DNA of 51,913 bases from Bacteroidota bacterium (lineage in GTDB: Bacteria > Bacteroidota > Bacteroidia > Cytophagales > Microscillaceae), in NCBI GenBank assembly GCA_004292795.1, contig RDXI01000018.1, positions 1 through 51,913 on the forward strand. The letters run 5' to 3'. A model generated the notes under the pieces. The model was not told where the DNA came from. It did no database searches and was given only the letters and a program-made list of their open reading frames with translations. The position numbers and the translations under genes are program-made. Within the stretch, counting starts at the first letter, position 1. Each line of letters opens with the position of its first letter. This document shows, one piece after another, positions 3,059-50,155 of this stretch.

Positions 3059-3185
3059 TCAAATGTTTAGTGGAAAAAATTTTATGAACGGCATACTTGC
3101 CTACCTGTTGCAAAGTAGGCAAGTAAAAAGATTCATAAATCATACCAAACAACACCTTTCAGCATTGTTTTGTGTTGCAAGGAAA

Positions 3186-4133
3186 CTATAGTGATGCCAT
3201 AGCTTCTTTTTCAGCCAAAAACCTTTCAGCATCAAGCGCGCCCATACAGCCCGAAGCGGCGGCGGTGATAGCTTGCCTGTAGGTTTTATCCTGCACATCT
3301 CCACACGCGAAAACGCCTTCGATATTGGTGCGTGTTGAGCCTTTTTCGGTGATGATGTAGCCTTGTTCGTCCATATCCAAGAAGCCTTTGAAGATGCTTG
3401 TGTTGGGTGTATGCCCAATCGCCACAAAAAATCCGCTAATAGGCAGTTCTCGTACCTCTTGCGTGAGGGTATTTTGCACGCGCACTGCTTCGACAACCTC
3501 CTTGCCTACTACTTCCAAAGGCGCAGTGTTCCACAAAATTTCGATATTTGCTTTATTTTTAACGCGGGCTTGCATAATTTTGGAAGCACGCATTTCATCA
3601 CGTCTTACTATGAGATATACTTTTTGGCAAATGTTCGCCAAGTACGAAGCCTCTTCTGCCGCGCTGTCGCCTCCGCCTACTACGGCTACAGCTTTGTTTT
3701 TATGAAAAAAACCATCACACACTGCACAAGACGACACACCACCGCCCAAATCGCGCAGACGCAATTCAGAAGGCAAGCCGAGCCACTTGGCAGATGCGCC
3801 TGTGGAAATAATCACCGCATCAGCTTCTATAGTATGTCCACCGTCAATAGTCGCTATTTTTTTGTCCTTGCTGAAATCTACAGCCGTAACCATACCATAA
3901 CGGACATCAGTATCAAAGCGTTTGGCTTGTGCCTCGAGGTCGCTCATCATCATTTGCCCATGTATGCCTTGCGGATAGCCCGGGAAGTTTTCCACCTCGC
4001 CTGTGAGCATCAGTTGTCCGCCCGGTTCGTTGCCTTGATACAATACGGGTTTTAGCCCAGCCCTTGCCGCATATATGGCGGCGGTGTAGCCTGCGGGACC
4101 CGAACCTATGATAAGACAATGTACTTTTTCCAT
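3186..4133 (-). CDS. trxB: Thioredoxin-disulfide reductase
   Basis: FAD motif GSGPAGYTAA, redox-active CAVCDG, NADPH motif GGGDSAAEEA. Length 315 aa. Confidence 0.9.
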   Translation of the reverse strand: MEKVHCLIIGSGPAGYTAAIYAARAGLKPVLYQGNEPGGQLMLTGEVENFPGYPQGIHGQMMMSDLEAQAKRFDTDVRYGMVTAVDFSKDKKIATIDGGHTIEADAVIISTGASAKWLGLPSELRLRDLGGGVSSCAVCDGFFHKNKAVAVVGGGDSAAEEASYLANICQKVYLIVRRDEMRASKIMQARVKNKANIEILWNTAPLEVVGKEVVEAVRVQNTLTQEVRELPISGFFVAIGHTPNTSIFKGFLDMDEQGYIITEKGSTRTNIEGVFACGDVQDKTYRQAITAAASGCMGALDAERFLAEKEAMASL

Positions 4134-49300: not shown

Positions 49301-50155
49301 ATAGAGCTGTTCGAGCAGGGTTTGGCGCGAGTGGCACAAGGCGCGACATGGAACTTTATAGACACCACAGGCACGCCCTTACTCAAACAAGGCTTGCCTG
49401 AAGTGCATCATTTCGAAGAAAATTTGTGTTTGGCGCACAATGGCACAGGTTGGGGCTACCTCAACAGGCAAGGCGCGTGGCAAATCTTGCCTACCTACGA
49501 AAGAGCCACCCATTTTGCGCATCACATAGCCGAAGTAAAGCCCCGCAACAGCACCAAAAACATCTACATCGACACACTCGGCAACGAAGTAGGCAAGCCC
49601 AAAGATTGGTACACATTGGGAGATTTCACGGAACACAAACCCGACAGCACGCTACGCCTCATGCGCATACACCGCGAAGGACGTTGGGGCTATTGGGACA
49701 GAGAACGCCAACGAATGTTCCTATATCCAACTTACCGCAAGGCAACTGCTTTTTACAATGGCTATGCCCGCATAGAGGACTTGCGAGGCGACACGCGCTA
49801 CATCAATACGAAAAAACAAACCTTTCGAGCCTTGCCTAATGGTGTGAGATGGTTTGATACAGAAAACGACCAATTCAAAACCATTCGCAAAAATGGCTTG
49901 TATGGCTTCGCTACCTTGCAAGACTTTGTGTATAGCGAACCCAAATTTGCGCACTTAGGCGAGCCTCACGAAAACCGTATTTTGGTATCTATTCGCGCCT
50001 TGTATGGCGTGGCAGACAGGCAAGGACAAATCTTGCTACAGCCCATTTATGAGCGCGTGGTGTACATGGGCGCGGACATCTTCCGCGTGGAAGTGAACGA
50101 CCAAATCGGTTATTGGCACAAGACTAAAGGCTGGCTGTGGGAGGCAAGGAAGTAG
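46328..50155 (+). CDS. Large secreted WG-repeat protein (about 1275 aa) with dozens of ~30-aa KWG(x)I(D/N)..G..(V/I)(I/V)P..Y repeats
   Basis: Signal peptide MRKFLVLICCFASSLPTWAQ. Repeats such as KWGCIDLAGKVIISPVFDYI, KWGVIKINGEIVVPITYTQI and KLGLVNINGTPILPTEYESF. Confidence 0.75.
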   Translation: MRKFLVLICCFASSLPTWAQTSLREERLPVRMQGKWGCIDLAGKVIISPVFDYISTFKNGTAIAQKNGKLGVIDKHGNTLLPFEHLNLDTLSTECFATRNEAGKWGVIKINGEIVVPITYTQIVAQKYATNTIFQVRQEGLWDAYNEAGKRISTEHETYDFYKPTLIVCKRNDKLGLVNINGTPILPTEYESFAPYPYRTDYFYAQKDKKFGLVTDSGKVIVPCEYDYIKTVGQGGNRVTLQRAENTLIEVGKQGKKGIFSILFEEILPAEYDDFEPHPQYANLITITKGGAQGLFDGNTRKVVLPCKFSNIVLVTNDLAIISQEKDNITLSGAHNIATNKELISVQYNSLQTVGSGRNMYFIASYTNQYTIYNQQGRKITQNLPLDDVRFDVAGIFLLRVGKVWGLLNEACFVQPQFDGISPFKRNLAMTRMGNLYGLINNRGQVIAPIQYLQIKMIGQTARAFRADGSTDIITFDEQGNFVERTTYSTKLKTIGIKKDQTKVEEKKAEEWQFDLEQAQRSLPARANLPTQTTRRVSGIPTRSLNDFTFGAHSFVYNGAVQKWCVLRQSGDTLIPAIFEYVNEIPSLGFVQTAHVIEDTEGDTKGKKFVHWGLLDAETGKWIYPETKDALRQVEALLKDFQRGEIGRTSAFFLRKDGVAINSVKVTEKQKVERRYLAYCEPFDTLTNLAEFNAGGSIDKKLARIKPNVTNGAWGLMNRSGVVVSSPTYHEIRPKRQMYFVRRDNAWGALDSTGREVVPCLYAKTDYVPNNEGTPMRDFILLSKTVERYGFLDSSRTIVIDATFKNAQHFREGFAPVMCDSTVGKERKTLWTFIDKQGNLLHPYAFREARHFHEGLAGVKIGQKWGYLNTQGQIAIEPAYSQAQDFHEGKAVVRDFNTGKLHYINQDGSRLNELAYEKASDFEQGIAIAQDSEKKLYGLLQASGTWLLFPKYVHIAPFNEQGYAHYKDELGAKLGLLDRQGREITKAKYTKIELFEQGLARVAQGATWNFIDTTGTPLLKQGLPEVHHFEENLCLAHNGTGWGYLNRQGAWQILPTYERATHFAHHIAEVKPRNSTKNIYIDTLGNEVGKPKDWYTLGDFTEHKPDSTLRLMRIHREGRWGYWDRERQRMFLYPTYRKATAFYNGYARIEDLRGDTRYINTKKQTFRALPNGVRWFDTENDQFKTIRKNGLYGFATLQDFVYSEPKFAHLGEPHENRILVSIRALYGVADRQGQILLQPIYERVVYMGADIFRVEVNDQIGYWHKTKGWLWEARK

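Follow-up and report, generated by a model that had tools for sequence, protein, structure and literature searches.

The word rGYAGGCAAG as a genome-wide signature of an uncultured Bacteroidota clade and its likeness to DNA uptake sequences

Sequence-specific DNA uptake is established in two proteobacterial families only. In the Neisseriaceae, the DNA uptake sequence (DUS, e.g. GCCGTCTGAA and its dialects) is a non-palindromic 10-mer that occurs about once or more per kb in both orientations, within genes as well as between them, forms terminator inverted pairs, varies as a clade-specific 'dialect' and is missing from recently acquired genes. In the Pasteurellaceae, the uptake signal sequence (USS, e.g. 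AAGTGCGGT) has a core of ~9 nt, leads to over-represented tripeptides, uses reading frames according to encodability and falls on poorly conserved residues. Two other types of abundant word are relevant. The highly iterated palindrome HIP1 (GCGATCGC) of cyanobacteria is a hyper-abundant short word across its lineage, evolutionarily conserved and long obscure in function; it is methylated by DmtA and DmtC, its role remains under debate, and recent work links it to natural transformation. Chi and the FtsK-orienting polar sequences (KOPS) are short, asymmetric, over-represented words, few-fold enriched and 75-90% co-oriented with replication. Here, we describe the word rGYAGGCAAG, which shares the DUS and USS traits listed above, the abundance and conservation of HIP1 and the short asymmetric form of Chi and KOPS, and which marks the DNA duplex genome-wide in one uncultured Bacteroidota clade. 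The window analyzed is one complete contig (RDXI01000018.1, 51.9 kb) of a metagenome-assembled genome (MAG); the contigs of relatives amount to ~150 kb, and all evidence is computational.

The first-pass annotation of the window had claimed a ~100-fold over-representation of the 9-mer GTAGGCAAG and its reverse complement CTTGCCTAC, and exact counting bears this out, with 46 copies (21 on the plus strand, 25 on the minus strand) against an average of 0.36, and at most 2, in 100 dinucleotide-preserving shuffles of the window. Markov models derived from the k-mers of the window return expectations of 0.33 (order 1), 2.0 (order 3) and 15 (order 5) copies, the values at the high orders being inflated because the sub-words of the motif itself are absorbed and dominate. 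The original tally of ~42 copies was essentially right, but four copies had been missed (206, 1834, 3501 and 6959) and several coordinates were off by 1-18 nt (e.g. 8856 instead of 8847, 26591 instead of 26602, and 41387 instead of 41369). The 9-mer is real, yet it captures just one half of the motif, as the C variant and the core of 7 nt had been overlooked. Indeed, unbiased k-mer ranking of the window places GCAGGCAAG, a transition variant of GTAGGCAAG with 37 copies, as the second commonest 9-mer, and both variants together (GYAGGCAAG) total 83 copies, or 1.6 per kb. Their common core, AGGCAAG, is the top 7-mer and outranks every A/T homopolymer-like 7-mer, with 134 copies (2.6 per kb, or one per 390 bp) dispersed over both strands between positions 206 and 49597. 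The 9-mers account for 1.4% and the cores for 1.8% of the DNA, while some species give up to ~2% of their chromosome to uptake sequences (10.1101/2025.10.24.684340).

Alignment of 202 core sites from the window and its relatives yields the logo r-G-Y-A-G-G-C-A-A-G, in which information is confined to positions -3 to +6 and drops to ~0 bits one base outside the 10-mer. Because the flanks carry no information, rGYAGGCAAG is a free-standing 10-mer and not the heart of a miniature inverted-repeat transposable element (MITE) or a repetitive extragenic palindromic (REP) element; REP, MITE and other dispersed repeats were rejected on this ground and because 90% of the copies lie in coding sequences (CDS). 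The absence of conserved flanks also distinguishes the word from the USS, which possesses AT-rich flanking segments, and its degenerate Y position, besides its different sequence and phylum, distinguishes it from the DUS. The reverse complement of GYAGGCAAG, CTTGCCTRC, is a different word, and the motif is therefore non-palindromic. Its commonest one-off variants are transitions, either T/C at position 2 or A/G within the core (AGGCGAG, 51 copies).

The window is 91.6% coding and 8.4% non-coding. Copies occupy several reading frames as well as intergenic DNA, as the first-pass annotation had stated, with 121 of the 134 cores in genes and 13 between them, and 27 of the 38 called genes bear the motif, in both orientations. 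A per-gene shuffle of synonymous codons, in which proteins and codon usage are fixed, leaves 2.5 ± 1.6 copies of GTAGGCAAG in CDS as compared with the 40 observed, and 14 cores as compared with 121, while a codon-order shuffle leaves 0.45 copies of GTAGGCAAG. The tripeptide VGK is spelled GTA-GGC-AAG, which is GTAGGCAAG itself, in 19 out of 20 instances, and AGK is spelled GCA-GGC-AAG in 16 out of 19, although AAG represents only 25% of the lysine codons of the window; about one fifth of all AAG lysine codons belong to the word. VGK is also in 5-fold excess over amino-acid composition (20 versus 4.0 expected), and the antisense peptide readings LPT, LPA and LAY are likewise enriched. The preferred readings are VGK, AGK, LPT, LPA and LAY, the frame giving TAG is empty, and the genic cores comprise 68 in sense and 53 in antisense orientation. 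The word thus overrides codon preference and, at tolerant positions, amino-acid sequence: it shapes the proteins, and not the proteins the word. USS and DUS frames also follow what can be encoded (Findlay & Redfield, PMC2817400), but the tripeptide distortion is ~2-fold in the USS versus 5-fold for VGK here. The genic fraction differs as well, 90% of the present copies being in CDS versus 34.5% in Neisseria meningitidis, with 65% in Haemophilus influenzae and 49% in Actinobacillus pleuropneumoniae (PMC2817400).

These counts bear on the idea that a repeated mobile element, recurrent protein domains or codon-pair bias has produced the word as an artefact, which we regard as barely credible. The longest motif-dense gene, encoding a WG-repeat protein (46220..50155, plus strand), does account for 27 of the 134 cores, at 6.9 per kb and with both orientations present, and some sites fall on Walker-A GK motifs. 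However, the information-free flanks rule out one or two repeated elements as the source, the synonymous-codon shuffle rules out codon-pair bias, and the spread over 27 genes in both orientations, together with the enrichment of the antisense readings LPT and LAY, completes the refutation.

Relatives were found by GlgB and LysS searches of a large protein collection, and the cores of their contigs were then counted. The closest one, L334 (GCA_013298105.1, LysS 91% identical to that of the window), contains 2.57 cores per kb. At 86% LysS identity, L329, L330 and L331, from three JGI samples, contain 2.0-2.3 cores per kb, and L335 and L336 (the latter from GCA_043748375.1) contain 2.7-2.8, so that all relatives at 86-91% LysS identity, which represent four further lineages, range from 2.0 to 2.8. 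Two loci identified through GlgB, L082 (GCA_043748375.1, 80%) and L083 (78%), exhibit 2.3 and 1.4 cores per kb, respectively, and seven independent contigs of relatives span 1.4-2.8. All enriched loci contain both the T and the C variant, and in most cases these two are the leading 9-mers. In contrast, L332 (LysS 75%), L085 (GlgB 75%) and L086 (GlgB 67%) contain 0.14, 0.25 and 0.11 cores per kb, respectively, and the average over 80 LysS loci from other Bacteroidota, at 64-72% identity, is 0.10 cores per kb, none being enriched. The genome-collection scan with LysS behind these 80 loci had a best hit of 69% identity and returned no close relative, so that they serve as a negative control. These densities and the presence of both variants indicate that the word is genome-wide, inherited in a narrow clade and absent just outside of it, with a sharp boundary between 86% and 75% LysS identity. 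No comparably abundant substitute word, or 'dialect', was found in the sister lineages L085, L086 and L332. Among named relatives, Cytophagales or Microscillaceae MAGs come closest, at 62-72% identity. A metagenome scan with the pattern GCAGGCAAG-N3-9-CTTGCCTGC returned essentially chance hits among the matches listed, only L294 among them resembling a clade member; the pattern is too unspecific for so large a collection. A viral scan with the pair pattern likewise returned chance hits among the matches listed, L180, L182 and L102 exhibiting generic GGCAAG codon bias only. Of note, XisH/XisI genes adjoin lysS in L334 (6595-7322).

The lysS gene (41478..43202, minus strand) allows the sites to be followed between lineages. 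It contains 6 cores in the window, 5-7 in each of four clade lineages, and none in the outgroup at 75% identity. Two sites are common to all four lineages and lie at clade-specific residues (TVGKN versus TVADK, and KQASA versus KKANP), while alignment columns 79, 154 and 369 show gains in single lineages. Where two lineages share 77-82% nucleotide identity in lysS, 55-92% of the motif 7-mers are retained, as compared with 16-24% expected for a random 7-mer, and such retention shows the word persisting at orthologous sites well beyond the lifetime of neutral sequence. With respect to 80 distant orthologues, some of the residues encoded by the motif were compatible already (PLP, KGK), and the others lie at variable positions at which the window deviates from the consensus. 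Several of the lysS cores encode such off-consensus residues, VGK replacing the V-G-D/E of orthologues and AGK their T/S-G-M, and GlgB of the window reads KTLPTL where orthologues read KTKGNL, KTQQTL or KTVKTI.

At the strain level, two SRR12360574 contigs are 98.5-99% identical to the window, with an overall rate of single-nucleotide polymorphisms (SNPs) of 1.33%, and between them and the window two motif gains and two losses are found. SNPs affect 5 of 455 motif columns and 296 of 22199 columns elsewhere, five SNPs giving this comparison low power. The motif columns thus carry SNPs like the rest, and individual sites are not strongly protected on short timescales. The overall pattern is the one expected when a weak drive at each site is offset by mutation and purifying selection, a balance that has been modelled for uptake sequences (PMC1939737).

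The word is missing from recently acquired genes, in agreement with the scarcity in AT-rich acquired patches that the first-pass annotation had noted. A motif-free stretch of 3.4 kb (15960..19346, GC 0.31) carries GmrSD and HEPN genes and is presumably a recent acquisition. Altogether, five low-GC genes are devoid of cores: those encoding a C92 amidase, the GmrSD and HEPN proteins and an Eco57I-like methyltransferase, and a hypothetical open reading frame (ORF, 18432-18818). A second stretch (28594..35440, 6.8 kb), comprising SusC, SusD and the next gene, has a normal GC content (0.41-0.42) and a single core; over the ~6 kb of the three genes, ~15 cores would be expected. In a similar way, genes without homologues in related genomes lack uptake sequences, the USS included (PMC2817400).

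Regarding the content of these regions, the low-GC island (16152-18178, GC 0.31, no motif copy) encodes GmrSD-like and RiboL-PSP HEPN proteins. It is followed by a MiaB/RimO-type radical-SAM gene (19258-20745) and by an AAA_15/AbiEii-type ATPase gene with a small partner ORF (20765-22968). The GmrSD/HEPN island and the AAA_15/AbiEii-type pair are probably anti-phage defence genes. At the contig end, the methyltransferase gene (50166-51779, minus strand, GC 0.30, no motif copy) encodes an M.Eco57I-like N6-adenine DNA methyltransferase (PF07669 and PF22837), for which no restriction partner is visible in the window.

The presence of this methyltransferase gene introduces an alternative, in which the word would be an iterated word in the manner of HIP1, the target of a clade-conserved methyltransferase or of a sequence-specific mismatch repair or gene conversion of the very-short-patch type, its abundance arising inside the cell through biased repair or methylation-dependent recombination rather than through selective uptake. 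We consider this rather unlikely, although it comes next after an uptake-type signal. An intracellular drive would account just as well for the abundance, the orientation neutrality, the persistence of orthologous sites, the lack of copies in young genes and the clade restriction. In addition, the variants tolerated are transitions, cyanobacterial HIP1 is a precedent for an abundant word linked to methylases, and an enzyme of the Eco57I family is encoded in the window itself. However, the present word is asymmetric, unlike HIP1 and the typical Vsr-type targets, and it is restricted to a narrow clade whereas HIP1 is phylum-wide. The only methyltransferase of the window, by its GC content and lack of motif copies, looks recently acquired and would make a poor clade-wide driver; it was rejected as an unlikely candidate for this role. 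Moreover, as recent work on HIP1 points to transformation, this alternative may merge with the uptake explanation. The viruses do not separate the two either: a viral scan with the triple pattern gave 52 matches in all, none of them with a host-like density, and the clade is too rare for this result to tell uptake from intracellular drive.

The orientation of the cores bears on the word as a polar, replication-oriented signal of the Chi/KOPS, or architecture-imparting, type. In its favour, the present word is a short non-palindromic 7-9-mer and strongly over-represented. Nevertheless, the strand-bias check proposed along with the first-pass annotation reveals, within the window, no bias at all: 68 cores are on the plus strand and 66 on the minus strand, while the cumulative GC skew climbs almost monotonically. 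The relatives are similarly balanced (18/15, 23/21 and 22/20), the sole skewed one being the 10-kb L334 contig (19/7). With no skew and an enrichment of more than 100-fold, as compared with the co-orientation and modest enrichment of Chi and KOPS, a polar signal is largely refuted and we hold it to be very improbable.

Orientation neutrality would suit a protein that reads the duplex, and the word might then be a selected binding site for a chromosome-organizing or regulatory protein, for instance a nucleoid-associated protein or one that loads SMC, or a mark by which a defence or repair system tells self from non-self, the copies being kept by functional selection. Retention at orthologous sites well above neutral and the lack of the motif in foreign-looking genes, which would befit a 'self' label, speak for such a role. 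Against it, the spacing is irregular with gaps of 3-4 kb, the turnover of sites between lineages and strains better fits a weak per-site advantage, and sites this numerous and redundant would hardly warrant the cost in amino-acid changes. To our knowledge, a density of one core per 390 bp is also far above that of architectural sites. We therefore judge this explanation improbable, though less so than a polar signal.

The first-pass annotation had also reported inverted pairs forming hairpins, and those at 3096-3123 and 10923-10948 are both recovered. Among the 13 intergenic cores, 8 sit in four tight inverted pairs (3096-3123, 38070-38101, 40307-40330 and 41442-41477), all of which fold into stable hairpins (z -3.4 to -4.9); the last three contain the GGCAAGA terminator stem that had been proposed, and begin directly after stop codons, with a U-run following the pairs at 38070 and 41442. 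The AAAGCAGGCAAGA / TCTTGCCTGCTTT pair (38070..38101, plus strand) forms a 14-bp stem followed by UUUGUUUUU (folding free energy, dG, -24.7 kcal/mol; z -4.7) directly 3' of the stop codon of a P-type ATPase gene (38057), in the manner of an intrinsic terminator. The CAGGCAAGAC-TCGC-GTCTTGCCTG pair (40307..40330, plus strand; dG -17.5, z -4.4) comes after the stop codon of a YhcG-like nuclease gene (40304). The pair at 41442..41477 (dG -15.0, z -3.4) is located between the convergent gene 40332-41447 (plus strand) and lysS (41478-43202, minus strand) and, with its U-run, may terminate transcription in both directions. The CTTGCCTAC-N10-GTAGGCAAG pair (3096..3123; dG -20.8, z -4.9) lies in the gap between the genes 1997-3052 and 3186-4133, both on the minus strand. 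A GTAGGCAAG-N8-CTTGCCTAC pair (10923..10948), identified by exact search and folding, is instead inside the hypothetical ORF 10803-11309, which contains 6 cores (11.8 per kb). Similar pairs follow stop codons in the relatives L082, L329, L334 and L336. On the strength of their folding and position, the intergenic pairs look like intrinsic terminators; inverted pairs of DUS and USS likewise form terminator hairpins after genes (10.1101/2025.10.24.684340).

Other hairpins and RNA elements are found in the same part of the window. Two tandem paralogous genes encoding YhcG/DUF1016 PDDEXK nucleases (39285-41447, plus strand) are each followed by a near-identical motif-built hairpin, CAGGCAAGACTCGCG[T/C]CTTGCCTG. 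About six 42-bp units, repeated in tandem between a gene of the FGE-sulfatase family and the lysS start (43227-43478), each consist of a 30-nt perfect-stem hairpin, CTATAGCTTTTTCTTGTGAAAAAGCTATAG, and a 12-nt spacer, CAATTTGATGAA, and the array explains the second over-represented word of the window, AAAAAGCTATAG (11 copies). The copy number of this array varies, with ~2 hairpins in the 98.5%-identical strain contig L001. Rfam reports a DUF805b cis-regulatory RNA motif (38722-38757, minus strand; 44.8 bits for a gathering threshold of 35.6) just upstream of the gene 38145-38699 (minus strand).

A transformation-linked signal is ranked first because almost every sequence-level hallmark of DUS and USS is present: a non-palindromic word about once or more per kb in both orientations, without conserved flanks, with a choice of frame, inflated tripeptides and placement at variable residues, terminator pairs, clade restriction and absence from acquired genes. 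The uptake-signal interpretation of the first-pass annotation is to this extent partly supported, all of its sequence-level properties holding, and the sharp clade boundary, the retention at orthologous sites and the imposition on variable amino-acid positions are further DUS/USS-like properties that it had not included. We infer the step from this genomic footprint to uptake, and propose, at somewhat short of even confidence, that the word is a DUS/USS-like uptake or recombination signal maintained by molecular drive. The driving force would be a bias, during natural transformation, towards taking up or processing conspecific DNA that bears the motif and that would then undergo homologous recombination, as for DUS in Neisseriaceae and USS in Pasteurellaceae. 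The word would accumulate in either orientation, in genes and between them, through this drive and against mutation and purifying selection, and intergenic inverted pairs would be co-opted as transcription terminators. More tentatively still, rGYAGGCAAG may be the first DNA uptake or recognition sequence in the phylum Bacteroidota, read by a different receptor; the DUS receptor in Neisseria is the minor pilin ComP.

Several points weigh against an uptake signal. Every hallmark listed above would be equally expected from any other sequence-specific drive. The cores are not enriched in intergenic DNA, 13 out of 134 being merely proportional to the 8.4% that is non-coding, and their spacing is clumpy (coefficient of variation 1.6, gaps up to 4 kb) rather than even as for the USS. 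The strain SNPs at motif columns described above add to this. No competence, type IV pilus or DNA-receptor genes are found among the Pfam families of ~200 kb of clade DNA, a negative that is uninformative as this represents a few percent of a genome, and the clade organisms are known only as MAGs. The transformable Bacteroidota described so far are not known to need an uptake sequence. The searchable literature reports none for Bacteroidota, and a full-text search found none of four 9-mers in a relevant paper. The finding suggests an uptake-sequence-type genomic word that is new both in its phylum and in its sequence.

The remaining genes of the window include those of SusC/SusD, a vault-protein homologue and a WD40 protein. 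The vault homologue, an 829-residue protein (4274-6763, minus strand), comprises the shoulder and repeat domains of the eukaryote-type Major Vault Protein (PF11978, PF17795) and is rare in bacteria. It is neighboured by genes encoding an adenylate/guanylate cyclase (6842-8095, minus strand) and a GldM-like protein (8132-9295, minus strand). The glycine dehydrogenase gene gcvP (13157-16064) is split by a single frameshift near 14960-14975, the ORFs 13157-15046 and 15012-16064 jointly matching full-length GcvP; either the gene is a pseudogene, or the MAG was misassembled here.

The footprint of the word is extreme, covering almost 2% of the DNA with a 5-fold distortion of one tripeptide. If it is an uptake signal, its reader would have to be a different receptor, as these organisms lie far from both proteobacterial families, and self-preferring transformation signals would have arisen independently at least three to four times, in Neisseriaceae, in Pasteurellaceae, possibly in cyanobacteria with HIP1, and in the present clade, all converging on one genomic footprint. 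Whether such signals are a rare oddity or a recurrent solution is a question in the evolution of bacterial 'sex', for which this Bacteroidota clade would provide an independent replicate. Because a sister lineage at 75% LysS identity lacks the word, the receptor or enzyme behind it could be tracked down by comparing genomes. Independently of how it arises, the word offers a very sharp marker for metagenome binning and for flagging acquired genes in the clade, and it may prove useful for making these bacteria transformable.

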